Shown here: positions 1,722-33,203 of the stretch, piece by piece
Layout: each line of letters starts with the position of its first letter
Numbering within the stretch: position 1 is the first letter of the stretch
Origin: Atractiella rhizophila
Lineage: Eukaryota
Reading direction: 5' to 3'
DNA length: 33,203 bases
Assembly (NCBI GenBank): GCA_021432655.1
Contig: MU271674.1
Span: forward strand, 1-33,203
Translations under genes and position numbers: made by a program
Notes under the pieces: model-generated
Databases searched by the model: none
What the model saw: only the letters and a program-made list of their open reading frames with translations
What the model was told of the DNA's origin: nothing

Positions 1722-3319
1722 ATGGCGAAAAGGCCAATACATCCGGAATCAGATTGTACTATCTATCAAAGGCTGATGTACGATACTTATCTTCATTGGC
1801 CAATATTTAATCCCTTGTATGTCGAGGACGTTGGAGATGGTCGAACTGCCCCAACCGTGGATCGCTCAGCTCGGCCATCTTCCTCTCTTGAAGCAGGCGT
1901 TCGCTCTCCTTCTACACCGACCTCTTCCCCGCCAACCATTACGCCTACCCCTGGTCCATCGCATGAAATCGAAATGCAAATGGATAGTCTCGACGGCCCT
2001 TTAGCCTCGACGCTCGAGGATACTGCCGTCGCCTCTCCCGGTGCTGGATCGTTGCCAGGGAGGAGGAGGGGCTATGGAGGTGAATGGCGAATAGGAGACA
2101 TGGGGTACTGTACCCAACTTGGCACCTTCAGGTTCTCAAGGAATATCGAGAGCCTCACCGGAGCTAAAGGCGAACCGCTTGACTCGCCATTGACGGACGT
2201 TGTTTGCAACGCTGAGTCTCCTATTGTTAGAGGGGACTTCAGTAATACGCACTTTGAAGTCAGCGTGGATCCTCCGGTTTGAGTCTTCTCTTCGGCTATT
2301 CAGTCAGTTCCTTTGTCTCGAATTGACATCTGAGTGTAGTCCCCTCCCTGGAATGCCTTCCTTTGGAGTTCATTACCATAGCCAATCTCACGAAGCCGCC
2401 TTTCTCGCTATCACATCAGACGCATGTCGATTCGCCGTCACTCACGAAGGCGTTGCTGCGAACTATTTCCGGCGGTACTGTAAGACAATGTTGGAAGACG
2501 ATATGCAAGCTGGGTATTGTCCGACCGCCAAAAAGGAACTTTGTATGATCACTGGTCTTGTCAAATCTTTCGGTTGGCTCCGAGCAGTGTGTAGGTCTTC
2601 CGGGTCTAGTTTTGGGGTGAATCTCGGCGCGCAATCAGCTGGATTCGAAGCGGGGCGAGATTATGGCGCTTTGAGAGGTGCTCATGTGCACCATGGCCCA
2701 ACGAGGCATAAACCTAGTATGTCTCTAGCGCTAATCTGCCGACTCTAACATGCCATTCAGGGAGCAGCATTCTCGGAAGCGACGTGGGCGATCAAACATT
2801 GTTCATGACGCGAATTATGTGCAAGTATCCAGGGTTTCCAAAGCTTGGGATCAAAGCGGGAGGGTCAAGGCCACCTTCTCCATCGACAGATCATCAGGAT
2901 GACAGCGTCCATCCAATCTTTAGCATGGACCCAATATTTTCTGATGGATCGACTGAGGATCAGGTCTGTCGCTCGCTCAAATGATTTCCTTTAGTGCTGA
3001 TGATTTCCACCAGACATCCGATCCATTGAGTGTTCTCCTTGATGCCATGGTGACTGTGGGTGTTTCAGGCACGAGAGAAAAGTTGAGGATACTGATACTC
3101 TGATACTCTCGCAGCTGCAGCCCAGTGCGGACCTTGCATCTGACACTGACTTGTGTAACTTATGGCAAAAGGTGCTCTGGTCTTCTCCATTTGTGCCATG
3201 TAAATCATGCTTACGAAGGAGGTGGTAGCTCTCGCATCCCAAATCTAGAGAATGGACCACTCAGAAGGCGGTAGAGCTGTTGCAAGCCTGTGCAGGCTGC
3301 ATGGTAGAAGAAGATGTCG
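1722..3319 (+). CDS. Gasdermin-like (RCD-1/HET-Q1-related) pore-forming domain, multi-exon; 5' part of a probable fusion gene
   Basis: Introns by eye: 2277-2339, 2717-2760, 2964-3013, ~3056-3114, 3172-3228 and 3320-3363. Motifs in order: YQRLM..WPIFNP, GEWRIGDMGY...GTFRFSRNI, EAAFLAI, ELCMITGLVKSFGW, VHHGP, DQTLFMTRI, DPLSVLLDAM, PSADLASDTD. This resembles from memory a basidiomycete gasdermin-like family. One 1-nt frame problem at ~2340. Confidence 0.55.
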
Positions 3320-3363
3320 GTATGTTATCATCCCTCCAGAAATGACAACTCAAGTCTGGATAG

Positions 3364-6300
3364 GGGTGGTGGCACTACAGGTTTGGGAAGATTCCCTTAA
3401 TGTTCTCAATCCTACTGCTCAGCCGAATGATGTGCGAACTGAGACCAACGAGGAACACAACATTCCCGTCATTGTTTCACAATTGGACGCTGCAAAGAAG
3501 ATGCAAGATCCCAACCCGAAACTATCACCCCTAGAAGGTGTTCTTTCGCGCATCCCCTTCCGCCACAACAGGCTCTCCTTCGCCTTCGATAGTCTCACAA
3601 TGCACGTAGGATTGAAAGTGCATCCCGACCGCAGGAATGACTCCTCCACTCCTCTTCAACAACTCTGCAGGGCGGTTCCATCGTCTGCTCGGAATGAACA
3701 TGCGTCTGTCGAAAAGGGCGATGCTATGCCAATCTGCAGAGACCTTAAGCTGGGAATATGGACGGATCGGGGCTTCACGAGTGTTCCGACCGCACAACGC
3801 AACGAAGGGGTCACAAATATGGCGGTACTCGACGCTGATCCATTGCAAGGGCTATTTACTGCAGATAAGGATCCAACAAAGTGGCGGAAAGAGCAGGTGG
3901 ATGATTTCATGGAAGTGTTACGTCGGAGGATAATCCAGCTGTCAGCGCTTGACGCTGGGGGTGAGGAATTTCTCTCCCCTGTCCCTCCTACATCCGCAGA
4001 TCTTCCCTCATCTGTTCACCTGTCATCGATGTCATCCCCGACACTTCCCCAAGACCTGGATCATCTATCCATCTCATTTCCATCCTCACTGGCCCTCGCT
4101 CAACCCTGCCCAACTTCACGTGTGCTGTCACTTCTCTACAGCGCCTCGTCTCAGTTCAGACCCACGCACACAACACGTTCTACAAAATTGGTCACACCCT
4201 GTGATTCACTACGCGACACAAAATTCACATTGCCCACCCGCCGAGCCCTGGAGAGTTCGTCTGCTTCGGTGGAGAGTTGCGGAAGAAGTTCCAATGGGAG
4301 TATCGAGAACGACGCCTCTTCCCTATTCTCGTTCGAGAGCGTGGATATGGAGTGTAAGGATGTGGAAGACGACTACAGCTCCGGTTGCGTAGCATCTGCG
4401 GAGATCGAAATCACGCCAACTCTCTCGCCTACCAAGCTCAACCCTCTGAAATCACCTTCCCTGTTATCTCTCACCTCTTCCTTGGATTCATCGCCGTTGT
4501 ACCATTCTTCCTCTCGCGAGCACTTAACCGTTAACCGCAAAGCCGCTATCCCGATTCCTTCTCCAGCCCTCATTTCCGTCCTCTCAGCTGATGATGTACT
4601 TGCTCCTCAATTCCCCGTCACGGCTCCCACAACCATTGCCCCTTCTACCTTACCCGTCAATCGATTCATGGATCCTATCATGCAGAAACCGAACCAGTTT
4701 AACTGCCGGAATTTCAAGCTTCAGACGTCGCAGTATGCACGGTTGTCGGACATTGTCATCTTCAATAAAGAAGGAGTGCCCAACAGAGAAAACTCAAAAG
4801 ATGGGACGATCGAGGTTGGAGAGGGCAGCATCCGAGCTTTGAGGCTTGCAGAAAGGTTTTTGGATGCCATTGAGGATGAAAGGCAGCGCGTGTATGGCAA
4901 TGGTGATGGTGGTGTGAGATATGGTGTCTACATCATTAGTGGTTCGTGTTCTTGCGATAATTCATTTGGGATCTTGCACTGACGACTGGATGCGATAGAT
5001 CCCGTTGAAGTTTTTGAGCGCGACTTTCCCGAGATGATCTGCATCGGAAGCAATGGAACCATCCAAAACAAGATCGACTTTTACGATCGTGAGAGAGAAG
5101 AAATGAGGAATTTAACGAGCAGAAGCGAAATTGCCAAAAATGTCTGGGTAGGTATCTCATTCGAATTTGTGCTCTTCCTTGTTCACCAATAGTTGCAGCT
5201 GGGAAATACAATGGGAGATGTGCCTATTCACGCGATCAGAAACTTGAATTCTGATTCAACTGCTTCGCTCAGCCAGTATTCTTTCTCGTCTCGCGAAAGC
5301 AACGATGGGACTCCCCAACCTCCTAGCGCGGGCCGTCCGGATGTCAATCCTGATCACTTCTCCATCTGCATCAAGTGTACTGAAACCCCGCCATGCCTGA
5401 TGAAGCATTCCTTCACGATATTTCAGCTTCTCTTGGTGCCATCGAGGACGAGCAAAGCAGCGCAGGTTTGCCTGTTGCTGTCGAAGTGGAAGGTGCGAAT
5501 GGCGATAAAGAAGTCGTCAGCAAGATCTTCAACGTCCACGATATGGTCCAGTTGGAGTGCCTCGGCACTTCACTCGTCTTGGAGAAGGACATCAGGCTGT
5601 TCGTTCGCTTCATGGAGGACATTATCCGACTAGCGGTTTGGATCAAGGATCAGGCCTACAATCAGTCGAGACGGATTCTCATTCACTGTACGGACGGATA
5701 CACTGAGTCGTCCATGCTCGCCCTCACCTACGTCATGCTCGATAGACAGTGTTCTCTACCCGATGCCTACCTTTGGATCCAGAATAACTGCAACAGATCC
5801 TTCTTCGTGTATAAGGACGACATTGATGTGCTCAAGGCTCTGGAGAAGAGGGTCGGGGCATTTGTTCGGCGGGAGAATGAGAAAAGGAAGAGGAGGGAGA
5901 AGCGAAGGAGAGAGACATTGATTGCCCAAGCGATGAAAACTGCTCTACACGGTGGGATGGATGAGCTTCACGAACCCTTCCCTCCGTCTTCTTCTGAGTA
6001 TTCGCGCTTGTCTCGATCTTCGAGCAGGAGCAGCGGTGGTCGGCCTTCCCTATCGGATGACCGGTCGTCTGCCATGCTTTCGAGCATCAGAACGCATCCT
6101 TGGTTCTACGATTCGCATTTTGAAGGTCACTTTCCCAGCCGTATCCTCCCCAATCTTTACCTCGGGAACCTTCAGCATGCCTCCAACCCTCTCATGCTTC
6201 AACAGCTCGGTATCACCCATGTAGTTTCCGTCGGAGAATCTCTTCTCACTCCTCCCCGTCAAGAAGGATTAGGATCTTCCTTTGGTTCCTGGGGTGGCGA

Positions 6301-6866
6301 CTTTGGAATAGGACGACCTGGAATGCCCAGAAGGGAGAATTCGCTGTTCTGGGAACATAAAGAAGGACGGATGCAAGTTTGGACATCAAGGGCGTCTCCG
6401 GTACGAGAGCTTTCCTTTCTTGGAGAGAGCATTGCTTACATCGAGAATAGACGACGGGAATGACAGCATTGTTCCTCATCTCGAGAAAGCGGTCGAGTTC
6501 ATCGACAATGCAGTTCGGTCTGGGGGAAAGGTCCTCGTTCATTGCCAAGTCGGAGTTTCTCGCAGCGCGACAGTCGTAATCGCGTACGTGATGAAGAAGT
6601 GCCAACTCGATCTCGCAAGCGCATACCTCCTCGTTCGCAGCCGTCGCCTCAATATCGTCATCCAACCAAATTGCAAGATTATGTGGGAACTCTGGGTCTG
6701 GGAGGGTCAACTCGAAGAGGCGCGAGAGGCCAGGTCTCGTGCCCTGTCCCCATCCTCGAAAGCAGTGGAAAACCAGAAGGCGTTTCAAAGGACGAAGAAG
6801 ATCAGAATCTCGTGGAGTTTTCTGGCCAGGGAAATTGGAGCCCTCAACGAACGTTATAAATGTTGA
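3364..6866 (+). CDS. PPS1: Pps1-type dual-specificity protein phosphatase (two DSP-like domains), with two apparent frameshifts
   Basis: Motifs: FMDP..RNFKLQTSQYARLSDIVIF, DFYDREREEM...SEIAKNVWLG, ILIHCTDGYTESS, FPSRILPNLYLGNL..GITHVVSVGE and the catalytic VLVHCQVGVSRSAT. Introns 4942-4998, 5148-5198 and 6401-6450; stop at 6866. One base is missing at ~5386-5392 and at ~6378-6380. Confidence 0.85.
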
Positions 6867-7579
6867 GCGTCAATCAACAGTCGTAGCATTATACTTATCT
6901 TATCCTTTTGCCTTTCCTCCGTTCCACTCTCTTATTTTTCCTCTCCCATCCACCGCAGTCCTCTCATCCACTACTCCGTCGCATCATTAACCTACTAACC
7001 TATCATCTACCGTCAAATATCTTTAAACGTCGTCTCCGCTTCGTCGCCGTCAATTCACCGTTAGCTTTTTCTATTACCTTATGTTGGTCATCGGAATAGA
7101 ATCGTTGTGATTCCATATTTCAAGTCTTTGGTCTCCTTTTCCAGTACTCAATTGTCGAAATATCCGTGCTGTTTTCGTGACTCAATTCTCTTTCGCCTTT
7201 CCAAGCTAACTCTCTCCTCTCGACTCTGGTAGTGTAACAGGGGTCGTGATCATATTATTTTATACCGTTTCGTCTGGCAACATTAATTCAGAAACAAACA
7301 TGCGCTCAATATCTTTCTTCTTATCTTCTTGGTCTCTCTTTAATGGTTGTGTTGTTCGGGTCTTCGCGACCAGTTGATGACGGGATGGACGGTCCGTTGG
7401 TCATGTTGGGTTCTCAATCAAAGTGTATTAGGCAGGTCAGATTCAGTGTCTTTCTCTTCCTCATGTCGAAATAATTTGTTTTCTCGGTCCACTTCCCCTT
7501 CCTTTCAAGATGCAAAGGGTTGTTCTTCAACTGTAACCATTACCAAATCTCAAGCATCGTTATACTTACTCAATCAGCT

Positions 7580-9776
7580 CTAGTTTCTGTAAATGCATAT
7601 ACGGTTGCCCTCAATCTCCCGTCCCGTTCACGAAGTTCTTAGCTCGCCGCCCTGTAGGAAGTTGTCAGCTTCAAGTCCAAGAGATTCTTTCATTCCTTGA
7701 TAACTTGAAACTGAAGTGTCCATCGCGATAATTTTAGGCCTAACAGCTTCCGTCATAGAGCCTATTTCTAGGCATCGAATACCCAGTCAGCGCCGTTCTT
7801 ACACATTCTAGAAGGGATAGACTTACTTCATGTAAGCATCTGGGTGATTCTGAAACTGTTAGATAAAGAACATATTAGTTGACTTGTACGCACATAAAGG
7901 AAAGGAATGGATGAAGAACATATTCACTGGTTGGATAATCTTTAGGATCGCAACCAATCTTCGGTTTTCCTCTCTGGTATACCCATGCACTTTCTATACA
8001 TCTGCCTTGACGGTTTCTGCATCCAACGTTTATCCTCATTTGGCTTGTCCCAGCTTGGCATCAACTCTGTCCTCATCGTCAGTTTGCCTAAAAGCACTGG
8101 GGCGGCATACTATCTAGGATGATGGTGATGTCTCTCCAGTTCTCCATAGCCCTGTTGTATTGTCGACGGAACGTGAGAGCCAGCGGTTCGAACACTTTTC
8201 TTGCGAACGCGGCCTGAGCTGCTTTCTTGCAGTACCTGTCGAGATTGCATTCCTTGTCTTCCGCTGTCGAGTGGGTCAGCCTGTTGTCTCAAAGATGTGA
8301 GGACTCACCTTTGTGATGGCGATCCTTCCGGCTTGACAAGTGCTCCATGCCTGATCTGCTGTTTTCGGTTGGCAGTTGTTCAGCATGACTTTGGCCTGTG
8401 ATCTTTCTCAGTCACTTGAATGTGATTTTCACTCAGCCCTCACCTTTGCCATGGTGGGGTCAAGCCTATCGATGTGCACAAAGCTTCCAGCGGGGTTCCC
8501 ATAAATCGCTTGATCCACTTTGGTGGTTCCTGTGTAGTGATGGAGGTTTGCCCAGGGTACCATTCCAAATTCGTGTGCCAACCGTAGCATTTCGACACGG
8601 ACTGGTTTGCTTTTTTTGTAGAAGATGGATTTGACCACTTCCTTGCCGAATTTGGCCTGGCGAAGGGCAGGAGGCAGGTCCTCAAGTTGATACCCTCGAC
8701 GATCGATGGCCACCGCCGTGTTTTGTTTGTACTTGTCGATGAAGGCGGCTCCATTTGCAAGTGAATCGATTGTTGCCTGGGATAACGCGTGTGTCTTCGC
8801 TTGTTCTGCCGATGGCTCATATCCAAAATTCATACCACAAGAAGAGTGGGGCCAAGGTGGGAAAACTGGCGTAGACGGACACTTCCATCTTCCAACGTGA
8901 TCCTCCTGCAGCACTCTTAGCTCTATCATCCTGAAGGTGTTACTTACCCTAGATGTGGAGACATGAAGTTGAATGGGAGCTTGATTGTCCCTCCCTTGCT
9001 TGTCTCTGGTGTCATGACACTGCACCATGGTCAGCAAGCCCAATGAGGATGAATATCGCTGACCATAACGCTTCTTCCCAGTCCATATTGACCAGTTTCT
9101 TCCCTACCCTCTTCTTCCCTTCAGTCTTTCTCTTCTTTGCGGCTGGCGTTTTCTTCTCCTTCGCTCTCTTCTCCCCTTCGCTGTCTGACAATGTCTCCTC
9201 TGAAACATCAACATCCGTAATCCCACGTTTCTGTCTCGGGTGCCGATCTTCCTTGCTCATTTCCCCCCCACCAGCCCCTCCACTTCCCCTCTTCCTTGAC
9301 ATTCCTTCGTACCCTCCTTGTCCCACCTTAGCGGATGTCCCACCATGTCTCTTCCCTCCATGGTCAACAGAAGTACTATTTCTCTTTGCACTCTTTTGCG
9401 GTTTGTTTCTCCCACTCGTTCCAGTGACTACCTTTGAACTTGGAGCATTGGACGGCACCGTGCCAGTTGCTTTCGAAATCGTGGGTAAATCGTGACAGGA
9501 GCTCTGCGAGGGGAGTGAGTGAAGACGATCGTATTCTGGGGGCCTAGCTTGTCGCGTTGCAGATTTCAGCGTACCCAGACTGATATGACGAAGACCGACT
9601 GGTCTCTGCAACTTTGTTGGTCCTGCTGATGCAGGAGAGATCGGGTGGGCCTTGAACCTTGGCTGCTTGTTCAGAGCAAGCCTTGCTAGCTTTGCCTCCC
9701 TCGCCCGCTTTGCCTGTAGACGTGGGTGTGCAATGATGGTTCGCCAGCCTTCATTGTCAGGGCCAGTGCTGATCAC
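7580..9776 (-). CDS. Hypothetical multi-exon protein (basic, low-complexity N-terminus); may be disrupted, boundaries uncertain
   Basis: ORFs 9012-9776 and 8429-9043 overlap in different frames. There is a series of minus-strand donors (GTAAGT ~8947, GTGAGG ~8443, GTGAGT ~8308, GTGCGT ~7893, GTAAGT ~7826) with branch/acceptor signals (e.g. CTGAC...CTACAG ~7652). No family recognised. Confidence 0.45.
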
Positions 9777-10585
9777 ATGGCCACCTGCTCTGAATGCCCC
9801 TGGCTTGGAGATGGGCTTTGTATGGGGCCAGACTGAGCTTGTCCTATACCTGAGTCAGCATGATGATCACTGAGGCATTATAGGGCTAGGAGTTCTACTT
9901 TTAACTGATCCACTGGATGGGCACAAACTTGATGATAGGTCTCACCACATCTACCTTGGGGCAGGAGTTGATCTTGTGAGCCAATTGGGGACTGAAAGCC
10001 AATCCGGGTCCGAATGAAACAGAGTGAGAAGGAAACGCAGCTGTAACTAAAGCCATTTCGATTGTTTTTTAGATTTGATATGTTAATGGGGGGTGTTTAA
10101 CGCTTTGGTGTTTGATGTGTTCTGGAAAAACGCTTTGGGTGACAATCTGTCTGGGGACCAAGTGCAGGCAACAGGGTCTTATATAACTTTTGGGGATCAA
10201 GGTTGCAATGCAAGTCACATGGGATGATCGGTTCTAAGAGCGATCAATCTATTTGACACAATGTGCCCTGTTACCACAGCTTTGGGCACGTAGGACAGCA
10301 ACAAACAGATGCAAAGCTTAGGAGCCAGATGTATGGTAAGCCGGATGTGTGGCCAGCATGAGGGTGCAGTGAGCCGGATGTGTGGTAAGCACGTAGGAAT
10401 GGGCTTTTGCACCAGACATCAGAAAGGGAAGTAACAGCTTGGTGTTGGAATGGGATTTAGGGTTGTTGAGAAGAATACTACAGATTGATAACATATGGAG
10501 CATGTAGAGAGGCATCAGAAACATTGAAGAATAAGGGTTTAAATGGCAAAGAAAGGGTTGTTGCAACCAAAACCTCTCCGAGCAG

Positions 10586-11420
10586 CGGGGGTCACTGCAG
10601 GGCAATTTTGTTGAAAACGTCCCCAGTCGATAGGTTATCGACACAGGTGTAGAGGGGGTGTGGAAGGTGTAATTTCGCTCAAAACGTCCACAGTCGATAG
10701 GTTATCGACACAGGTGTAGAGGGGGTCACTGCAAGGCAATTTTGTTGAAAATGACCCCAGTCGATAGGTTATCGACACAGGTGTAGAGGGGGTCACTGCA
10801 GGGCAATTTGCTTGAAAACGTCCCCAGTCGATAGGTTATCGACACAGGTGTAGAGGGGGTGTGGAAAGTGCAATTTCGCTCAAAAGGTCCCCAGTCGATA
10901 GGTTATCGACACAGGTGTAGAGGGGGTGTGGAAGGTGTAATTTCGCTCAAAACGTCCACAGTCGATAGGTTATCGACACAGGTGTAGAGGGGGTCACTGC
11001 AAGGCAATTTTGTTGAAAATGACCCCAGTCGATAGGTTATCGACACAGGTGTAGAGGGGGTCACTGCAGGGCAATTTGCTTGAAAAGGTCCCCAGTCGAT
11101 AGGTTATCGACACAGGTGTAGAGGGGGTGTGGAAAGTGCAATGTCGCTCAAAACGTCCCCAGTCGATAGGTTATCGACACAGGTGTAGAGGGGGTGTGGA
11201 AAGTGCAATTTCGCTCAAAAGGTCCCCAGTCGATAGGTTATCGACACAGGTGTAGAGGGGGTCACTGCAGGGCAATTTGCTTGAAAAGGTCCCCAGTCGA
11301 TAGGTTACCGACACAGGTGTAGAGGGGGTGTGGAAAGTGAAATTTCACTCAAAACGTCCCCAGTTGATAGGTTATCGACACAGGTGTAGAGGGGGTGTGG
11401 AAAGTGCAATTTCGCTCCAA
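10586..11420. repeat. 67-bp tandem array (12 cores) with GTCGATA-ggt-TATCGAC palindrome
   Basis: The core GTCGATAGGTTATCGACACAGGTGTAGAGGGGGT starts at 10626, 10693, 10760 ... 11363, at exact 67-bp spacing. The remaining ~27 bp switches between two subtypes. Confidence 0.97.
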
Positions 11421-12039
11421 ACATTCTAATCTCTTGCTCATCACCAAAGGTGGCTAATGAGGATGTGGCGACAAAGTTCATATATACATGCAATTTCCAT
11501 ATGAATGATATATCACTTCCACAGAGGTCCTCTAGCTCCATATGCTTCACTTGAAAATGTTCCTGAAAACCACCGTCATCATTGCATGTTTTACAATCTC
11601 GCTCACACTTATGTTACAATCACTAGAAGATGTAAAAATTACAAAGGGTTTAGAATAGCGTAACATGCGCCTGTCTTCCTGAGAGTTTAGCAATGATCTT
11701 TTTCATTGGCACTAAAACCATTATTGATCATCTGCTTATCGTCATATGTGACCGTAATGATTCAAAACAAGCCCTTTAATAGGTCTCATTTGTTAAATCA
11801 TTCTTAACACTTTTTCATTTTAATGGTATTACTATTTTAAACAGCTCCATCATCTTGATCATTGGTCATACATTCAAGTTTGTGTATACCCCAAATTGAT
11901 TCTACACAATTCAGCCCCTCGCTTGCTCAAGTATACATCCAATGCATGCACTACTTTTAGCAGGGTATAAATCTATCCATGTCTATAGCCAATCTTAAGC
12001 GGCTGCCTGGACGAGTTTCATGAAACTTTGGTTCTCATG

Positions 12040-12205
12040 CCCCTCTATACGTAGTGTCGATAACCTATCGACATGGGCCACTTTCAACAAAATTGTACTC
12101 ATGAGACCCCTCTATACCTGGTGTCAATAACCTATCGACATGGGCCACTTTCAACAAAATTGCACCCTCAGACCCCTCTCTACCTGATGTCGATAACCTA
12201 TCGAT
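12040..12205 (-). repeat. Three inverted copies of the 67-bp unit
   Basis: CCCCTCT.TAC....TGTC.ATAACCTATCGA occurs three times at 67-bp spacing and is the reverse complement of the 10.6-11.4 kb unit. Confidence 0.92.
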
Positions 12206-12377
12206 CTGGTGCAGTTTTGCGACAATTGCACTTATCGTTAATAACGTACAGAGAAAAGATTTCTAAACTACTATAAATTAATTTCCAACTTTGAATGTAC
12301 TTTGTTCAATTGGACATATATGCCAAATATGAAACAAAGCTCTCCAATGAAGCAAGGATTTCAATATATAAGTGTTT

Positions 12378-13320
12378 TAAGAGACAACAGTTTTGCAATG
12401 ATACTGTTTTTATTGGGGCAGGGTCGCACCTTGGGTGCCTAGGAGGCAAGGATATAGCCAGGATCCTGTTCCTGGCAGAGGCAGTGTTGGAATCTGAGCG
12501 GCATGGAGGGGCAAGGATATAGCCAGGATCCTGTTTGTGAGACAGGCAGGGTTGTACCCTAGGCAGCGAGGAGGCAAGGATGTAGGCGGGATCCTGTTCG
12601 CGACAGCATCAGGGTCGTACCCTGGGTGACTAAGAGGCAAGGATGTAGCCAGGATCTTGTTCCTGACAGAGGTAGGGTTGTACCCTAGGCAGCCAGGAGG
12701 CAAGGATTCAGCCTGGATCTCATTCCTGAAAGAGTATCAATATATGTGTTGTAAGATGTCAAAGAGCGGACACAGCCTCTGCCTGCGAGTGTTTATACGT
12801 TCATGAAATTTTGACTGGATTGCTATTCCATATCTATGGCAGGGTTCTACCCTGGTCGACTAAGAGACAACAGTTATGTAGTGAAGCTGTTTATATTGGG
12901 GCAGGGACGCACCATGAGTGACTAGGAGGCAAGGATATAGCCAGGATCTTGCTCCTGATACAGGCAGGGTTGTACCCTGGGCCGCGAGGAGGCAAGGATT
13001 CAGCCAGGATTCTGTTCCCGACTATAGGCAGGGTTGTACCCTAGGCGGCGAGGAGGCAAAGATGTACACAGCATCTCAATGCTCCTGACAGCATCAGGTT
13101 CATACCCTGGCTGCTTAAGAGGCAAGGATGTAGGCAAGATCATGTCCTGACATAGGCAGAGTTGTACCCTGAGGCCACGAGGAGGCAAGGATTCAGCCAG
13201 CACTCGCGAAGTTCCTGACATAGGCAGGGTTGTACCCTAGGTGCCCAGCAGGCAAGGATTCAGACTGGATCTCATTCCTGAAAGAGCCAGGGTTGAACCC
13301 TAAAGTACCCTTAGTAGCAA
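12378..13320. repeat. ~63-bp tandem array (GGCAAGGAT..AGCCAGGATCCTG..CAGGGTTGTACCCT) in two blocks
   Basis: GGCAAGGAT is at 12445, 12510, 12573, 12636 and 12699, then again from 12928 to ~13251. The leader TAAGAGACAACAGTT is duplicated at 12378 and 12861. Confidence 0.93.
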
Positions 13321-13329
13321 TCATTCTGG

Positions 13330-14690
13330 GCTCGCGAGAGCTTGGACTTAACTTTTCGTGAGACCCAACCATTCGCGGCAGCTTGCCCCAATGTTCTCCT
13401 CGCGAGAGCTCGCGAACGTTTTTGAGTCGCGATTGATCGCGATCGTGTTCGCGCAGCGACAGCTGGCGAGAATCAGCTTTGTTTCGCGAGAGTTGCAATC
13501 TTGTTCGTTCGTGAGCAACCCTTCGCAGCAGGACTGTTGCAAACTCGTCGCGAGTTTGCTCTCTCGCGAGTTTACAGTCTCGCGTTTGCAGTCTCTCGCG
13601 TTTGCCATCTCTCGCGTTTGCAATCTCTCGCGTTTGCAGTCTCTCGAGTTTGCATTCTCGCGAGACAGCAAACTCGCGAGGCAGCACCCGAGCAAGAAAA
13701 CCAACACCAACTCACCCACCCGACAGCACTCGCGAGGCAGCATTCAAGCCACTTTGCAACGAACCAACACCAACACAAACCAGCCGACAGCACTCGCGAG
13801 GTGGCACCCGAGACACTTTGCAACAAACCAACAACACAACCAGCCGACAGCACTCGCAAGGCTACGAAACCAACCCTCATCTCGCGAGGTGGCACCTGAG
13901 CCAGTTTGCAAGAAAACCAACACTTACTCACCCACCCGACAGCACTCGCGAGGCAGCGCCCGAGCCACTTTGCAACGAAACAAGACTAACACAAACCTGC
14001 CGACAGCACTCGCGAGGCTACGAAACCAACTCTCATCTCGCGAGGTGGCACCCGAGACACTTTGCAACGAAAGCAAACACCGACACAAACTCACCCGACA
14101 GCACTCGCGAGGCAGCACCCAAGCCACTTTGCAACGAACCAACACCAAAACAAACCTGCCGACAGCACTCGCGAGGCTACGAAACCAACTTTCATCTCGC
14201 GAGGTGGCACCCGAAACACTTTAAAACAAACCAACAACACAACCAGCCGACAGCAGTCGCAAGGCTATGAAACCAACCCTCATCTCGCGAGGTGGCACCT
14301 GAGCCAGTTTGCAAGAAAACCAACACTTACTCACCCACCCGACAGCACTCGCGAGGGCAGCGCCCGAGCCACTTTGCAACGAACCAAGACTAACCACAAA
14401 CCTGCCGACAGCACACGCAAGGCTACATGCGAACCACTCCTCGGCACCCGAGCCACATCGCAACAAAACCAACACCAACACAGTCATCTTGCGAGGTGGC
14501 GCCCGAGCCGCTTTGCAACAAATCAACACCACAACTCGCCGGACAACAGTCGCGAGGCGGCACCCAAGCCACTTTGCAAAGAAACCAACACCAACACATC
14601 CCATCCGACAACACTCGCGAAACGACATGCAAACCGACACCCAACCCACACAACATCCCACAGCACTCACGAGGCGACACGCGAACCAGT
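13330..14690. repeat. CTCGCGAG-family array: ~16-bp micro-units, then ~60-65-bp units
   Basis: TCTCGCG(AG)TTTGCA micro-repeats at ~13540-13680, then repeated CCGACAGCACTCGCGAGG(C/T)(A/G)GCACCCGAG.CACTTTGCAAC. A higher-order period of ~402 bp is visible (13825 vs 14227). Confidence 0.93.
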
Positions 14691-14859
14691 GTCTGAAAAG
14701 GAATGTGTCTGTCTCTGAAGCAAAAAACAACAAAATAAAAGAGATAGGTATGTGAAAACTTGAATTGTAATTGCACCTCCGACAACAATACACAACGTGT
14801 TTTCCAGTTAGGTCGCATTGTAACGCATGTAATGTTGTTATTACACTGTATAAGATGTA

Positions 14860-16812
14860 ATAATGATGAGTGAACATAAAAAAAAGCGGAGCAAAAAGAT
14901 GCATCTTCATATATCAAAAACACAATTCGCTATTACTTCACCATTATCCATCACATTTGGGGCGTCAGTAGGGCCAACGCAAGGGCTGAGGGCCAGCTAC
15001 AACGACGTATAATTCTTAATACGAATGGGTGAATATTAAAAAAAGCGGAGTTCAAAATACGCACCTTGTAAATATCCAAAATCGCAATTCCTCATTGCTT
15101 CGCAATTATCCATCGTATTTTAGACGTGAGTAGCGCGAATTGGTGGCCTGAGATGTAGCTTTAACGACGTATAATTCTTAATGAGACTGAGGTAACATTA
15201 AAAAAAGCGGAGTTCAAAATACGCACCTTGTAAATATCCAAAATCGCAATTCCTCATTGCTTCGCAATTATCCATCGTATTTTAGACGTGAGTAGCGCGA
15301 ATTGGTGGCCTGAGATGTAGCTTTAACGACGTATAATTCTTAATGAGAATGAGGTAACATTAAAAAAAGCGGAGTTCAAAATACGCACCTCAGATATATC
15401 AAAAATCGCAATTCCTCATTGCTTCGCCATTATCCATCGTATTGTGGACGTGAGTAGCGCGAATCGGTGGCCTGAGATGTAGCTTTAACGACGTATAATG
15501 TGTATTGAGAATGAGCTAACATTGAAAAAAGCGGAGGACAAAATACGCACCTCTCATACCTCAAAAATTGCAATTGCTCATTACTTCGCCATTATCCATG
15601 GTATTTTAGGCGTAAGTGGCGCGAATGGGAGGCCCTATATGTAGCTACAACGACATATAATGTGTATTCAGAATGAGTGAATATTAAAAAAAGCGGAGGA
15701 TAAATACTCACCTGATATATCAAAAATTGCAATTCCCCTTTTCTTCGCCATTATCCATCGCATTTCGGGCGTGAGTCGCGGGAATGGGAGCGCCGAATGC
15801 CAGCTACAACGACGTATAATTCTTAATAAGAATGAGTGAATATTAAAAAAAGCGGAGTTCAAAATACGGACCTCATATATGTGAAAAGTTGCAATTGCTC
15901 ATTACTTCGCCATTATCCCTCGTATTTTAGACTTGAGTGGCGCAAATGAGAAGCCCGACATGTAGCTACAACGACGTATAATTCTTAATGAGAATGAACC
16001 AATATTAAAAAAATCGGAGGACGAAATACCCTCCTCACACACTTCAAAATCGCAATTCCTCATTCCTTCGTCATTATCCATCGTATTTTCGACGTAAGTA
16101 GCGCTAATTGGAGGCCTGAGACGTAGGTTTAACGACATATGATGCCTATTGAGAATGAGTGAATATTGGAAAAAGCGGAGTACAAAATACGCACCTCTCA
16201 TACCTCAAAAATTGCAATTGCTCATTACTTCGCCATTATCCATGGTATTTTGGACGTGAGTGGCCTGAATGGGAGGCCTGAGATGTAGCTTCAATGACGT
16301 ATAATTCTTAATAAGAATGAGTGAATATTAAAAAAAGCGGAGGACAAAATATTCATCTGATATATATCAAAAATTGCAAATCCTCATTGCTTCGCCATTA
16401 TCCATCGTGTTTTACACGTAAATAGTGCAAATGGGAGGCCCAGGATGTACCTTCGATGACGAATAATGTGGATTGAGAATGAGGGAATATAAAAAAAAGT
16501 AGAGGTCAAAATACACACCTCATATATATGGAAAAATGCAATTCCATATTGCTTCGCCATTATCCATGATATTCTCGACCTAAGTAGCGCGAATGGGAGG
16601 CCTGAGATGTAGCTTTAACGACCTATAATGTGTATTGAGGATGAGCTAACATTGAAAAAAGCGGAGGACAAATACGCACCTCTCCTATGTCAAAAATTGC
16701 AATTCCTCATTACTTCGCCTCATGCAATTTTAGATGTAAGTAGCACGAATAGGAGGATAGAGATGTAATTTCAACGACGTTAATGTGTATTGAGAATGAG
16801 TGAATATTAAAA
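14860..16812. repeat. ~162-bp AT-rich satellite, ~12 copies
   Basis: The AAAAAAGCGGAG anchor (G position) is at 14886, 15045, 15207, 15369, 15531, 15693, 15852 ... 16661. GCAATT.CTCATT.CTTCGC.ATTATCCAT is conserved in the units. Confidence 0.96.
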
Positions 16813-16817
16813 AGTGT

Positions 16818-17920
16818 ATCGCGAGTTAGGTGCTGCCTTGCGAGTTAGGTGCTGCCTCGCGAGTTTGCTGCTGTCTCGCGACTTTGCATTCTCGCTGCTT
16901 TGCTGTCTCGCGAGTTTGCATTCTCGCGAGTCTGCTCTCTCATGTTTGCATTCTCGCTAGTTTGCTGTCTCGCGAGTGTGCTCTCTCGCGTTTACAGTCT
17001 CGCGAGTTTGCATTCTCGCGAGTTTGTTGCAGTCTCGCAAGTTTGCATTCTCGCGAGTTTGTTGCAGTCTCGCGTTTGCAGTCTCGCGAGTTTGCATTCT
17101 CGCTAGTTTGCTCTCTCGCGTTGGCAGTCTCGCGAGTTTGCATGCTCGCGAGTGGGCATGCTCGCGAGTTGGCCATCTTGCGAGTTTGCTCTCTCACGTT
17201 TGCAGTCTCGCGAGACAGCATTCTCGCTAGTTGGCCGTCTCCCGGGTTTGCTGTCTTGCGAGCTGGGCGTCTCGCGAGTGCTCTTCGCTAGTTTGCTGTC
17301 TCGCGAGTTTGTTGCTCTCTCGCGCGTTAGCAACCTAGCGTTTCACCTCGCTAGTTTGCTGTCTCGCGAGTTGGCCATCTCGCGAGTTGGCAGTCTCGCG
17401 AGTTAGCTGTCTCGCGAGTTTGTTGCCGTCTCGCGAGTTTGCAACCTAGCGTTTGGGTTCACCTCGCTAGGTTGCTCTCTCGTGAGTTGGCTGTCACCCA
17501 TATCCCATCCGACAGCACTCGCGAGTTGACATGCGAACCACTCTGCGAAGTGGCACCCGAGCCACTTTGCAACGAAAAAAGCATACAAATAACTCAGCCC
17601 AACAGCACTTCTGAGACGACACACAAACCACTTCAATGAACCAACACCCGCTCAACTCATCCGGCACCACTCGGGAGGTGGCCCCAAATTACTTTGCAAT
17701 GAACCAACAGCACTCACGAGGCAACATGCGAACGACTTTGCAATGAAACCAAAACCCATACAACTCCATCCGACAGCACTCGCGAAGCAAGATGCAAACC
17801 TCTTTGCAACGAAACCAACACACATACAACTTCCTCCAACAGCACTTGCAGGTGGCATTGACATGTGAACCACGTAGCATAGCTGCATCTGAACCACTTT
17901 GCAACGATACCAACACCCAC
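16818..17920. repeat. Second CTCGCGAG-family block (micro-units, then degenerate long units)
   Basis: Dense TCTCGCGAGTTTGC 16-mers at 16818-17490, then CGACAGCACTCGCGAG..CACTTTGCAAC units. Confidence 0.92.
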
Positions 17921-18129
17921 TTCAACATAACTCCACTAGACATCGCTTGCACGGTGAGAACCACTTCACAACGAAATCAGCATCCGGTGCACTTCAATGA
18001 GTGCGAATGCCATCTGACCTAACCTCTTCACCTTACCCAACTCACCTGGCCTCCTTCTCCTCGTTCCATTCACCTGCTTCGAGGTCACAAGGTGCAGGCA
18101 CAAAGTCCTTTCAGCTCCCTACCCAGTCA

Positions 18130-18829
18130 TTGCTATGGGAGAAAGAAGTGGACGCATAGGTCGCCTTGATCGATCCCAATAGCAAAATCTTGAGCATAGG
18201 ATAACCTCTGAGGCCTAAGTCCCGCCACAAGTACCATCTAAGGGTGCGGATGTGCAGAGTATCCTGAGCCTTTAGTTATTCATGCAAACTGCCTGTGCTG
18301 CCTCTGAACAGCGCCTGCCCACTTCTGACACCCAAACCCCTCTTGAGCACTTGACCTTCCTTTTACCATGGGAGAAAGAAGTGGACACTTAGGTCGCCTT
18401 GATCGATCCCACAGCAAATTTCAGGAACAAGTACACTTTCAGGTTTTGGGTCTCCTAAGCGCACACTTCGCTTTCTGCCAGTAAGATATATACTAAGTGC
18501 CACAAGATGCTCCGAAGACCAAGAACCCACCTTCAAAACCCGAATCCATTTTGAGCGCCTGACCTTTAGCAAGCCTTGGGAGAAAGAAGTGGACGCATAG
18601 GTCGCCTTGATCAATCCCACAGCAAACCTCAGGAACAAGTGCACAGTCCAGCTTCGGGTCTCTCCAGCAAGCACCTTGCCTTCTGCGAGCAAATGTGCAA
18701 GGTGCTCCAGCTGCCCCAAAGAGTAAGTGCCCACCTCAATGACCCGAACCCCTTTTCAGCGCCAGCCTTTGGTTTGCCATGGGAGAAAGAAGTGGACGCA
18801 TAGGTCGCCTTGATCGATCCCACAGCAAA
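18130..18829. repeat. Four near-identical 50-bp hairpin cores separated by diverged 150-180 bp intervals
   Basis: TGGGAGAAAGAAGTGGACGCATAGGTCGCCTTGATCGATCCCACAGCAAA starts at 18136, 18369, 18577 and 18780. Confidence 0.93.
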
Positions 18830-19069
18830 CGGCAGGACCGAGTGCTGTTTGAGGATTCAGATCCTCCAAGTGAGCACTTCACCTTCGGCCAGCAAGAGCA
18901 ACGAAAACACAGCAGGGGACAATTTCGGACAAACACTTACCGGTGCATTTCTTGGGGGATCCAGAGAGGAGTCAGCCTTATAAGGACTTTCTGAGAGCCC
19001 CTTCGGGGAAGTAGAACCTCAGGGGCTTGGGATCACTTTGGGGGACTCTGGTTCAGGTTCACTCTTGCG

Positions 19070-20385
19070 AAGCCTAGCTCGCTTCAGCAAAGGTAGGTTC
19101 GTTGCCATGAAGTCAAGTTCACTCCAACAAAGACAGGCTCACTGGGACTGAGTCAGTTCGCTCTCGCGACCTCCTGTCACTTCAGTGAAGCCAGGGCTAC
19201 TCAAGCCACGCGAGAATACCTCCTGTTCGCTTCAGCAAAGACAGACTCGCTGGGGCAAAGTCAGTTGGCTCCAACAAGGCCTGGCTTGCCTGGGCAAAGA
19301 GCAGTTCGCTGGAGTGAAGCAAGGCAGACTTGCTCAGGCGAAGTACGTTCGCTCCATCAAGGCCAGGCTCACTCCTGCGAAGGCAGACTCACTCGGGCGA
19401 ACTGCAGTTCGCTGGAGCAAAGTCAGACTTGCTTGGGCGAAGTCAGTTCGCTTCAGCAAAGTCTGGCTCACTCCGGCGAAGCACAGTTCGCTCTAGCGAA
19501 GTCTGGCTCGCTCCAGCGAAGGGCAGTTCGCTCTAGCGAAGCCAGGCTCACTGGGACGAAATCAGTTCGCTCCTGCGAAGCCCAGCTCGCTCGGGCCAAG
19601 TGCAGTTCGCTCTAGCGAAGGCAGGCTCGCTAGGACGAAGTCAGTTCGCTCCAGCAAGGCCAGGCTCGCTCCTTCGAAGGCAGACTCACTCGGGTGAAGT
19701 GCAGTTCGCTCTAGCGAAGCCAGGCTCGCTGAGACGAAATCAGTTCGCTCCTGCGAAGTCAAGCTCGCTCGGGCGAAGTGCAGTTCCCTCTAGCGAAGGC
19801 AGGCTCGCTAGGACGAAGTCAGTATGCTCCTGCAAAGCCTGGCTCGCTCTAGCGAAGTGCAGTTCGCTGGAGCAAAGTCAGACTTGCTTCGGCGAAGCCA
19901 GTTCGCTTCAGCGAAGTCTGGCTCGCTCCAGCGAAGTGCAGTTCGCTCTAGCGAAGCCAGGGTCGCTGGGACGAAATCAGTTCGCTCCTGCGAAGCCCAG
20001 CTCGCTCGGGCCAAGTGCAGTTCGCTCCAGCGAAGGCAGGCTCGCTAGGACGAAGTCAGTATGCTCCTGCAAAGCCTGGCTCGCTCCAGTGAAGTGCAGT
20101 TCGCTCTAGCAAAGCCAGGCTCGCTGGGACGAAATCAGTTCGCTCCTGCAAAGTCAAGCTTGCTTGGGCGAAGTGCAGTTCCCTCTAGAGACGCCAGACT
20201 TGCTGGGACAAAGTCAGTTCGCTCCAGCAAGGCCAGGCTCGCTCCTTCGAAGGCAGACTCACTCGGGTGAAGTGCAGTTCACCGGAGCAAAGTCAGACTT
20301 GCTTGGGCGAAGCCAGTTCGCTTCAGTGAAGTCTGGCTCGCTCCGGCGAAGTGCAGTTTGCTCCTGCCAAGCCCGGCTCGCTCTG
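19070..20385. repeat. Array of 18-21-bp modules built on the TTCGCT-nn-AGCGAA palindrome
   Basis: Dozens of CAGTTCGCTC(T/C)AGCGAAG and CAGGCTCGCT..GACGAA modules, more degenerate at the edges. Confidence 0.94.
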
Positions 20386-23834: not shown

Positions 23835-24457
23835 CTTTCAGGCTGCTGTTGGGTTCTCTTCAACGCATCTTCGCTATCCTTATGAGAAGGTGGAGCCTTC
23901 TCCAACCCACAGCAATCAGGACTTCCTTAACCCACTGGATTGATGGCGTGATGTGGTTAGCTGCTGGGGAGCCTCTCGATGAAAGACATCGACAGGTTCA
24001 ACAGGTTCAACGGGACGCCAGCATCCGGGGTTAAGAGTCACCTTAACACTGTCCACCAGTTGACCCCTTCTGCTCTCCTAACCCTTTGCTGACGGGACGG
24101 GACTCTTCTCTCTCGTTCAACCTGCCACTTGCTAACCACTTTCTCACCCACTCTCCCACCTGCTCTCAAAAATAGGAGAGCTTTGCAGCTTTGTATCCCG
24201 GATAAACAATTGGGGACACGGGAAAGTGTTAACCTGCACGTTCTTTCATAACTGCTAGCGTCCCAAAGTCTGTCCCGGTGACTCAACCAAGAAATGGGAC
24301 AAACGCACAACGCCACTCACGCAATCCATTCCTGCATTCCTGAATCCTGGAAACACTGGATCATGGAAACACTTCTTTCTTCAAAACCATGCCATCCCCA
24401 TCCGAGTGCACTTCTCGACTTCTTTGCACTTTTTGCAAGGAGAAGGGTTAGCTGAAG

Positions 24458-27400
24458 ATGAACGCCGTTCCACTCCTGCAATCTCGCTCTGAGCCCTGGC
24501 TAAGCCCTTCTACGCCAGGAATCACTGCTGGTGACAAGGAGGAAAGTGGGAAAGACGAGAGTGGGAAAGACGAGAGTGGGAAAGACGAGTATCCAACATA
24601 CGAAGAGGGTGATCCAAAGGTCTCAGAAACATATTCCGTCATGACCTTGGTGGAAGCCTTCCTCCCCTCCCTCCTTGGCATCGCTTATGTCATTTTTTGC
24701 GTCTACGTCTCTGACGCCTCGTCCCCACCCGTCATCTCCCATTCCACCGCACACGCCACCGAACTACGAGGAGCGACCACGGCAATCGCCAATATCTGGA
24801 TCTTTATCTCCCTTCTCTTTGTGGGGAACCTCATTGACCGAATACGCTCTGAGGAATGGCATCGACGTCTGATGAGTGCGACGGAGGTGGGAACGCCGTT
24901 TGCACACCTCAATCACGTCTCGTCAAATTTGGGTGGAACACTCAGACATGCCGTTGATTTGTTTTCATTCTTCACCGGATCCTCGAGACCTTTCAAAAGC
25001 GTCTTCATTAGCGCCCTCCTAGCCATCGCGCTCAACGAAACGGCCCCTTCCATCCTTCAAGTAGTTCCCGGTTTGTTTTCCACTCTTACTTTTCGACTGC
25101 CATCCATCCAACATTAATTGATGCCTAGGTTGGTACCCCATTGGACGGCACAATATCTCGATACCTTCCCTACCGCCACTCTCCCTTCACGCCAACCTCT
25201 CTACAGTCTTCTCCCGGACCTCGACAACTAGTTCAGAGCTCGCAACGGTCTACGTTTTTGCCAAACTCAACAACGAGCCGATCTTCATCTACCGTAACTT
25301 CCCAAACGCCGTCGTCCCTCTTCCTAATATTTTATCCGATCATGGAGAGGTTTACGAGACGGATGTCGGTTTCTTTGCGTATGATTGCGAATGGATGGCT
25401 CCTGTCCTTGGGAATCCGATTGGGAGTACTACGGCCGAGGTGATCAGTAATAGAATGACTTATGCGGGAGGTGGGTATATGGGGTTTGGCAGTGCACCGT
25501 TCTGGCCTGACAGTATGTCTGATTCCATTTCTTCTATGAATGAGGATGAGGTATTCATGAAATGCGGTATGAAAAGCGCTCGACCTCCTCGACACGATAT
25601 ACAAGCTCTCCCCCGACAACACCACCTTGGTCCCCTCATACGACGGTGTGCTAATGATCACCGTCCAATCTGCCCCACTAGAAGCGATCCAACAAAGCAG
25701 GGGACTGTGGATGGACACCTCTTCCATCCCCACCTCCCCGATCCCCTCCACCTGGTCCGCCTTCCAGACCGATGCCGCAAACCTGTACGGGAACCCGATA
25801 GCGACGGACGTATCGATGCTCCTCTGCATCCCTCAAGTCATTGTAGAAAGCCATAGGATTACAGTGAGGGGGGGCACATACCTGAGCTATCATATTGAGC
25901 CGCTCGACTATCGAGTGGGGAACATCGACGAGACTCAACTACGGATCGCCATGTCTGATTCGCTACTGGATTTCGCCACTTCAACCTATTTCTACCTCAT
26001 CCCTATGGGCTTGAGCGGCGGATCAGCGGAGGAGACAATTGGCATTTACACTCCGATCAACCAGACCGTCCTCGGACCGACATATACGAGATTTGTCCAA
26101 AGCGCGCTGTCTGCGTATTTGGATGGCGGACCGTTTGGCACGATGGATGTGGATAGTCAGGGGTCGAGACTCGGATTGGTGTTGAAGGCACAGAGGGAGT
26201 TTCTCTGGCTCGTCGCTGGTTTCTACGCCCTCCTTGCGCTGGTGGGAGCGGCGGTGGTGTGGTTTACCAGTGGGAGGCGGGAGCAGAGGATCGGGAGGTT
26301 CCTGGGGATTGGGAGAGTGCTGAGTCTCGTCCAGTGGGGTGGGAGGGATTTTCCCTCCGGACTAGAGAGGACGTTGAACGGAAGGAGGGTTGCGGTGGTT
26401 GCTGCTGAGGTCGCGGGGGGAGAGGGGAAGATGGAGAGCGAGGAGGAGAGGGCACTTCTTGCGTTCCGCACCGCGCGGGTTTGTGTGAAGGATTTCCCAT
26501 CTGTTGATGGAGTGGCACCGGCGCTCAGTGTGCAGATCGGCCCTCCAGTGGTCAAGGGGTGGTTGGAGAGGAAGATCAAGGCGTTGAGGAATGTGGTGAT
26601 GTTCATCACACCGGTCGTTGGCGGAGCCTTTGTGGCGTTCGGCGTGTATGCCTATAAACATGACGTCGTGGTTCCTATTAAGATCGAGGAGGAGAGACTC
26701 GTCCTGATTGGCACGCTCTTTACTATCGCGGTTGGCTTTTGGAGAACGTTAGCGTTGGGAGGGACGAGGAGTGCGATTCGAGAGGTGCGGTCTGAGGTTA
26801 GTCCCTTCAAACCCCTGTCCTCTCTTCCCTCAGAAAGATGATGTGATGTGATAGGAATGGACGCGGCTTTCGGATCTGGCCCAGAAAAATGGACAGCTGG
26901 AGGATGAGAAGGTAAAAGAAGCCTTGGAGGACGTCTCAACCAACCAAACATCGATCATCCACTGGCTCCGCTACGCTCTCTTCTACACACCGCGCTCGCT
27001 TATCTCAGGCTACTATCGCCTCACTTTCCTCACTTTCATCCTGATGTCCGCCTGCTCCATCCTCTCCCAAGGAGCCATCCAACTCCGCCTACGTGAACTC
27101 CCCCTCTCGCCTGCCCAACCCTCAAATGTCAATTCGTACGATGCAAACTTCATTACGGTGTATAAGAACCTCACTGAGGAGCCGTGGGCTTCCCAAGCTG
27201 CGCTCATCACGAACTCGACGAGGTTAGATGTAATCGAGGGGTTCAGCCATACCGCGGACAATTATGCGTATCTTGAGCATGTGTTGGAGGTGACTATCGG
27301 ATTTAAGATGCCTTCCCAGGGGAAGGAAGGGTACTTCCTCATGCAGCCACAGGACACGATATACGAGCGGAATGCGAGCGTACGTTTCTACACGGATCTC

Positions 27401-28339
27401 GGGAGGTGGAGGATGGAATGTGCGTGGACCAAACCGACGATTCAAGAATGGGACGAGGAGGTGAACTCAAGCTCGTACATTTCGCTCAGGCTCGAGGATA
27501 AGGACGTGTATGGCCTCATCAACCCTCCGTGGGGCTATACGTGGTTTCATCCACTCCAGCGTCCCCAGCGGATCTCAAACACGTCAGGTATCTTCTCCGG
27601 TCTCTCTGCGTTCACGCTTTTCGGTGCCTCCTCAAACTCGCCTTTCAACACCACATCCTCGGTCCTTCTCGATTCCGTCCCGAATGCAGATCTCTCTCCA
27701 GAATGGCAGAAGTGGATCGCAACCACGATGGTGCCCTCTTATAGCCCCTCTTTCGTGGAGAAGTACGTAACCATACCAGACAAAATCACCACGTTGGTGT
27801 GCGAGCCGAACTTGAAAATTCTGTATAACTCCACAGTGACGATCTACAATGGTTCAGTCTCCTTCAATTTCGACTCATCCTCAGAGGACGAGGCAAAGAA
27901 GATCGGAAATCTGGACTATGGCCAGCTCGCCTACCTCCTCTACTACTCCTCGACCGGCATCTCCGTCTCCCAACTAGGTGACTTCTCCCCCCTCCTCCCA
28001 ATCGGCAGGCTCATAGGCGAAGCCGCTCTCTCCTCCTCTAATATCACCATTCCGAGAGATGGAGAAGATATAGCGCGGACAATGAATTCCCTCCTCGCCT
28101 CTAAACTAAAGTACTTCGCACGGTTTTCGTGGAATAATGCTACCACCTTTTCGTCGCCAGTAGGAGAGAGAGCAGTGGTTGATGTGTCCTTCCCTCAGTT
28201 TCTTGCGAGCGCCATATTGTTTGCGTTGTTATCGCTTGCGATTGCGGTGAAGATGTGTAGGACGAAGTTGAGGAAGTGGACTGTAGTAGGATTGCTTGTT
28301 GCTGGAGGGAGGGAGCTGGATGGGTGGAGAGAGAAGTAA
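24458..28339 (+). CDS. Hypothetical multi-pass membrane protein made of two tandem homologous modules
   Basis: ORFs join via introns 25071-25128 and 26797-26854 (frames checked) plus one unresolved junction near 25550-25625. Several hydrophobic helices and many N-X-S/T sites are present, and paired motifs recur in both halves. Confidence 0.8.
24540..24589 (+). repeat. 15-bp coding minisatellite (ESGKD x3)
   Basis: GA(A/G)AGTGGGAAAGAC is repeated three times in frame. Confidence 0.85.

Positions 28340-32178: not shown

Positions 32179-33203
<1,025 letters not shown>

Follow-up and report, generated by a model that had tools for sequence, protein, structure and literature searches.

We propose that a gene near the start of contig MU271674.1 of Atractiella rhizophila (assembly GCA_021432655.1) belongs to a lineage-specific family whose products are probably pore formers of the gasdermin type, and that this member, here called the source copy, is a crippled chimera. 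We hold this reading at somewhat better than even. The window, that is the whole stretch analysed, comprises 33,203 nucleotides (positions 1 to 33,203 of the forward strand). The span 1722-3319 on its plus strand would encode the N-terminal module, about 440 residues including an insert, of an expanded family whose members share this module and differ in what follows it.

The gene is real, transcribed and spliced. Exon 1 (1722-2278) supplies the ATG, a conserved N-terminal helix motif, an 85-residue insert (1818-2072, 40% Ser/Pro/Thr) and strands with the motifs R-I-G-D-x-G-Y and G-T-F; transcript contigs lie over it at 1687-1946 and 2075-2293. Exon 2 (2340-2716) is the core of the gasdermin-like module, with a long helix, the strand C-M-I-T-G-L-V-K and alternating strands, and is 62% identical to the family protein P0001 (E 5e-44, above chance). 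Intron 2 (2717-2760, GT-AG, 44 nucleotides) is followed by exon 3 (2761-2963), which holds the final strand motif and then an acidic Pro/Ser linker, and by intron 3 (2964-3013, 50 nucleotides). Exons 4-6 (3014-3055, 3115-3171 and 3229-3319), separated by introns at 3056-3114 and 3172-3228, form the conserved C-terminal subdomain of the module. Intron 6 (3320-3363) is in phase 1. Transcript contigs from X6 skip all five of these introns and those from X2 skip three of the first four, intron 3 among them, from which transcription and splicing of the source gene follow; the joint at 3320-3363 is seen in X6 alone, with a short side of just 20 letters. Exon order is the same in paralogs.

The initial annotation, made from the sequence alone, had quoted a series of motifs from this span, and all seven are present in the stated order at 2091-3150. 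It had placed six introns within 1722-3319. There are five including intron 1, the sixth beginning immediately 3' of the span; transcripts back the four later introns and intron 6, while intron 1 fails (TT donor, unspliced X1 contig). Nor is 3319 the end of the gene, as had been supposed: the reading frame continues into 3364-4941, and a deposited model of 836 residues, P0007, is identical to the window exons from an ATG at 2805 onward. That annotation had overlooked the loss of the intron-1 donor, the fusion at the 3' end and the variety of tails in the family.

A search of the genome with exon 2 gave 20 places among 21 candidates scored. About 18 are distinct once a locus assembled twice and the two halves of one interrupted gene are merged. 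At the end of C1167 and the start of C1219 (L019, L013) lies one family gene whose exon 2 is split by an AT-rich insertion. All protein relatives detected by sequence are labelled Atractiella rhizophila. The ratio of non-synonymous to synonymous substitution rates (dN/dS) in exon 2 is 0.04-0.36 in 8 of 9 pairs, the remaining pair being saturated, which shows purifying selection on this exon. The exon-1 insert ranges from none to more than 100 residues between loci. The two motifs flanking it lie 18-26 codons apart in 6 loci; elsewhere the spacing is 63-170. The Ser/Pro/Thr-rich insert first described is thus present as reported; its proposed role as a phosphorylation target found no support, the insert being absent from 6 loci.

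Of 19 loci, 15 share the phase-1 last intron that closes the module, which in the source copy is intron 6, and a short hydrophobic strand comes after it. Beyond this common intron the tails differ between copies. Downstream stretches retrieved for six loci comprise (i) two TPR arrays (TPR_12, E 2e-64 and 3e-56); (ii) one P-loop NTPase with TPR (C260), in which AAA_16, NACHT and nSTAND1 score E 1e-5 to 4e-3, under the Pfam cut-offs, and TPR_12 scores 8e-15; (iii) one patatin (E 4.5e-14); and (iv) two others, one a Q/P-rich frame without a Pfam match and one stopping immediately. Two deposited proteins carry RNase III-like tails (E 5e-6 and 3e-4, under the cut-off). Pfam gave no useful match in the tails of P0001, P0002, P0004, P0006 and P0013; the tail of P0013, which belongs to the split L019/L013 gene, resembles a permuted papain-like motif. 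Even the close sisters L011 and L012 bear unlike tails. The C260 paralog (L011, L048) has module, P-loop NTPase and TPR in order, but two TAG codons stop its frame, which is also broken at one point; it is not an intact frame of effector, STAND NTPase and repeats. On C531 (L047:155-2891) the module is followed by a very long run of TPR units that are nearly identical to one another; fungal NOD-like receptors (NLRs) with high internal repeat conservation resemble it.

The family sits close to chromosome ends more often than expected. The contig itself starts with a telomere repeat array, (CCCTAA)n, at 1-95, and 4 of the 20 family matches lie within 2.3 kb of such an array, where about 0.03 would be expected from an estimated 31-40 arrays (based on 338 overlapping matches). 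The window is one of the four by selection; the remaining 3 of 19 are still far above chance. In two of the four, on C109 and C403, the array stands inside a family gene: at G000:C109:1-48 and G000:C403:2-91 (L005, L049) one array cuts exon 1 and the other ends a patatin frame, which looks like chromosome breakage and healing. Several copies are broken. The idea of a subtelomeric, fast-evolving gene has fared well, in that a subtelomeric family with fast turnover is supported; this turnover would proceed by birth and death, often at chromosome ends and with gain of new tails. One locus was assembled twice (C251 near 60600, and C459), and over 2,752 bases its two versions differ by 5 short indels and no substitution, which provides a gauge of assembly error. 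In C251, telomere-like letters and a run of N are joined to the locus.

We consider it likely that the module has gasdermin kinship or a gasdermin fold, and assign no membership. Paralogs point this way in the ESM Atlas. By features, residues 20-350 of P0001 are nearest to Basidiomycota clusters without a name (0.96-0.97), and the nearest named clusters are Bact_GSDM (0.85, 11% of members) and Gasdermin (0.81); for residues 1-262 of P0006, Bact_GSDM clusters come top (0.87, 0.86). By structure, P0006 1-262 matches nameless Basidiomycota clusters with a template modelling score (TM) of 0.72-0.73, and four of the nine rows are gasdermin clusters (gasdermin D, pejvakin and two Bact_GSDM) at TM 0.42-0.46. 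The first structure row is a 57-member Basidiomycota cluster of 801-residue WD40 proteins, TM 0.64 to the module, hinting at module fusions beyond Atractiella rhizophila. The order of helix and strands in the models fits what we take to be the gasdermin N-terminal layout. After the acidic linker, P0006 residues 241-335 form a conserved alpha/beta unit with predicted local distance difference test (pLDDT) values of 67-93; the C-terminal subdomain proposed from the sequence thus stands, and inhibition by it enters only in the model below.

Several results count against this assignment. The Atlas gasdermin scores are below the tool's naming bars, shuffled proteins reach 0.8 one time in three, and the structure result is based on a paralog model with a predicted TM (pTM) of 0.49. 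A profile search, the check put forward with the gasdermin proposal, returned no gasdermin model from Pfam (none for 7 pieces and 10 proteins, in a set without PF26164), or from PADLOC and NCBIfam (11 sequences each); PF04598 had 0 matches in the genome and the PDB sequence search no match. Alternating strands are paired at P0001 90-111 and again at 186-203, as candidate membrane-inserting hairpins, but windows of such strands number 15 overall against 9.5 in shuffles (p 0.18), which is not above shuffles. No protease gene was matched by the 44 other open reading frames (ORFs) of the source window in an exon-level scan that can miss genes; about 80% of known fungal gasdermins have such a neighbour in the account of PMC8851545, and a protease within 10 kb is typical, not universal. 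Our own two structure models were poor in the domain of interest (pLDDT 38.7 and 43.3), so fold searches with them were uninformative.

These blanks would be explained if the module were instead an unrelated beta-rich Basidiomycota domain serving as an N-terminal effector or adaptor. Every search with hidden Markov models (HMMs) and against PDB sequences is blank, the Atlas gasdermin rows are all at TM below 0.5, and a TamB row reaches 0.40. Against this, two different paralogs give gasdermin families first among named clusters, gasdermins make up nearly half of the structure rows, and the helix and strand order fits. RCD-1 itself was linked to gasdermins through a profile-profile search (PMC7414189). 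We regard an unrelated domain as rather unlikely. The original gasdermin-like label survives as an Atlas lead to gasdermin clusters and not at the level of sequence searches.

The 3' part of the source gene is a mosaic. The 5' part of exon 7 (3364-4233, plus strand) is an open frame in single-copy DNA. Within it, 3843-4130 resembles the region after the F-box at three other genome loci (E 9e-7 to 7e-4), and F-box matches were present in both of the two loci scanned. From 4234 to 7997 (plus strand) the window holds a 94-96% copy of the segment G000:C126:55543-59381. This segment makes up the 3' two-thirds of a gene for a dual-specificity phosphatase with two domains, which we take to be PPS1-like. 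DSPc matches lie near 5648-5785 and 6456-6704 (E 1e-9 and 7e-25, above the cut-off). The module frame is open across the 4233/4234 junction, so that the phosphatase is joined in frame. Its N-terminal part is missing from the window and is found on C126 and on C1162, where a 99% copy of the 5' end of the gene stops 316 bp before the junction. The exon structure of the C126 gene is ambiguous near the breakpoint (C126:55238-55560). Just these two copies of the phosphatase domain region were detected in the genome.

Relative to C126, the window copy has a 1-nucleotide deletion at 5389/5390 (plus strand), which shifts the frame ahead of the first DSPc match, and a second at 6377/6378; the C126 copy has its own 1-nucleotide shift at 58064. 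The DSPc domains thus lie behind 1-nucleotide deletions in an assembly with demonstrated indel errors. Either deletion may be an assembly error, and these shifts, the one in C126 included, are weak evidence given the indels at the doubly assembled locus. The two phosphatase copies differ by 56 synonymous and 30 non-synonymous changes. The resulting non-synonymous to synonymous ratio (pN/pS) of 0.16 lies far below 0.55, the value that neutrality of one copy would predict (p 1e-8), which says that both copies were constrained through most of their history.

That constraint would also be accounted for if 4234-7997 came from the other haplotype of the C126 gene and had been joined to the module by mistake during assembly. 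The 4233/4234 junction is outside read-alignment coverage, and the C1162 fragment ends shortly before the window copy starts. C1162 differs from C126 by 1.0%, however, whereas the first 1,156 bases of the window copy differ by 5.6%; the join is in frame, and relatives bear other captured tails. We consider such a misjoin improbable and retain the chimera.

Crippling of the source copy is located at intron 1. In a comparison of 19 family loci, 14 have both anchor motifs (L002 and L003 being one locus); among the 13 others with both anchors, 12 share the position of a phase-2 GT...YAG intron, whereas no such intron was obtained for L020. At this position (2279-2339, plus strand) the source copy has a donor TT instead of GT and an intact acceptor at 2339; a canonical intron 1 that keeps the frame is therefore lacking there. 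Retention brings an in-frame TGA at 2280-2282 into the message and gives a product of 186 residues. The nearest GT-YAG pair with the normal acceptor (2277-2339) is out of frame and gives 198 residues. The X1 contig spans 2075-2293 unspliced with 0 differences, so the T at the donor is confirmed in another sample; this contig may stem from one or a few molecules, or from DNA. With the donor lost, most transcripts are likely to yield a stub of 186-198 residues without the would-be membrane hairpins, and the source copy is probably decaying or silenced. Three points speak for a less damaged gene. In-frame splice alternatives exist in the sequence (for example 2259-2307 and 2277-2334), no transcript contig lies over 2294-2577, so that some rescue splicing is possible, and the phosphatase shows the constraint described above.

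The copy might instead be alive: intron 1 would be spliced from a cryptic donor or from the TT itself, the deletions would reflect faulty assembly, and a full module-phosphatase fusion would be made with the phosphatase as decoy or regulator of the pore domain. This would suit the constraint, the contigs spliced across exons 2-7, the open junction frame and the indel errors of the assembly, but it is quite improbable. The donor change is a substitution seen in X1 too, and X1 is unspliced past all candidate donors up to 2279. Each rescue option has a defect, be it the want of a branch consensus, GAG as its acceptor or the replacement of conserved residues, and the phosphatase N-terminus is absent.

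We therefore return to a family of probable pore formers with one crippled member. In intact members, the small C-terminal subdomain and the tail would hold the beta-rich domain shut. Sensing by the tail (TPR array or STAND-like NTPase), or cutting of the acidic linker, would free this domain, which would then oligomerise, form pores and kill the cell. The source copy would have captured the F-box-family fragment and most of the phosphatase gene and then lost its intron-1 donor; its predicted product, a stub lacking the presumed hairpins, would as a consequence form no pore. Loss of a self-toxic gene by a telomere fits birth-and-death turnover. More tentatively, and at somewhat less than even chance, basidiomycetes may own a large gasdermin branch, and in Atractiella rhizophila the pore domain may be a portable effector module spliced via one fixed intron onto TPR, STAND-TPR, patatin, RNase III-like and phosphatase tails, giving sensor and executioner in one protein, with the phosphatase fusion functional until recently.

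Other features of the window surround this gene. Upstream, two dispersed repeats (104-440 and 1039-1198) each have many genome copies at 70-97%. Repeats are dense and nested at 7997-20000, a region that starts exactly at the end of the phosphatase duplicate and has many copies at 80-93% in other places. A long multi-exon gene at 24452-28339 (plus strand) would encode a membrane protein containing several hydrophobic segments; Pfam had no match in 4 ORFs. A frame at 32179-32652 (minus strand) resembles by eye the C-terminal end of a protein kinase and had no Pfam match at 0.01.

On its own the source copy is a minor decaying subtelomeric chimera. The interest lies in the modular family and the linked nameless Basidiomycota clusters, which would be a further variation on known systems if the gasdermin fold holds. 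Atractiella rhizophila is a basidiomycete outside the mushroom-forming class, unlike the hosts of known fungal gasdermins. Dataset S3 of PMC8851545 has 0 gasdermins in its 27 of 27 Basidiomycota rows. In the literature we found nothing on basidiomycete gasdermins or on the module family; subscription journals and some supplements may hold such reports. Somatic-incompatibility genes of basidiomycetes are described in PMC8229728 as poorly understood.

The module probably shares a common fold with RCD-1 of Neurospora crassa and HET-Q1 of Podospora anserina. Fungal gasdermins are likewise multi-copy with birth-and-death turnover, according to PMC10197012. The domain of insert-free paralogs, near 250-260 residues, compares with 244-278 residues in known fungal gasdermins. 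The latter have a short inhibitory tail and mostly an S8 or CHAT protease gene nearby, whereas the module family has a 70-95-residue subdomain plus long fused tails, and no such gene was found next to the source copy. Bacterial gasdermins (Bact_GSDM, PF26164) are the nearest named Atlas clusters, with features at 0.85-0.87 and structure at TM 0.44-0.45; one bGSDM-LysM fusion is mentioned in PMC13475620. The module differs from them in having no sequence-level match, spliced eukaryotic genes and varied tails after one intron. The source tail shares two DSPc matches with two-domain dual-specificity phosphatases; unlike these, it has lost the N-terminal part, sits behind the module and has two 1-nucleotide deletions as assembled.

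Fungal NLRs offer an organisational parallel, since the effector domain at their N-terminus (HeLo, MLKL-like, patatin) can be exchanged. In Fig. B of the S1 Text of PMC9815663, one half of the N-termini of basidiomycete NLRs are without annotation; the S1 Text also lists patatin-NB-ARC-TPR among fungal NLR architectures. Gasdermin does not appear among the effectors of fungal NLRs in those passages and supplements that we searched. The NLR-like paralogs here combine the module with P-loop NTPase and TPR in one case, with a TPR array in two and with patatin in one; the NTPase-bearing paralog differs from a fungal NLR in being broken and in its NTPase scores below the Pfam cut-offs. If true, a gasdermin-type module fused to NLR-like sensors would represent both a missing executioner and a new architecture.
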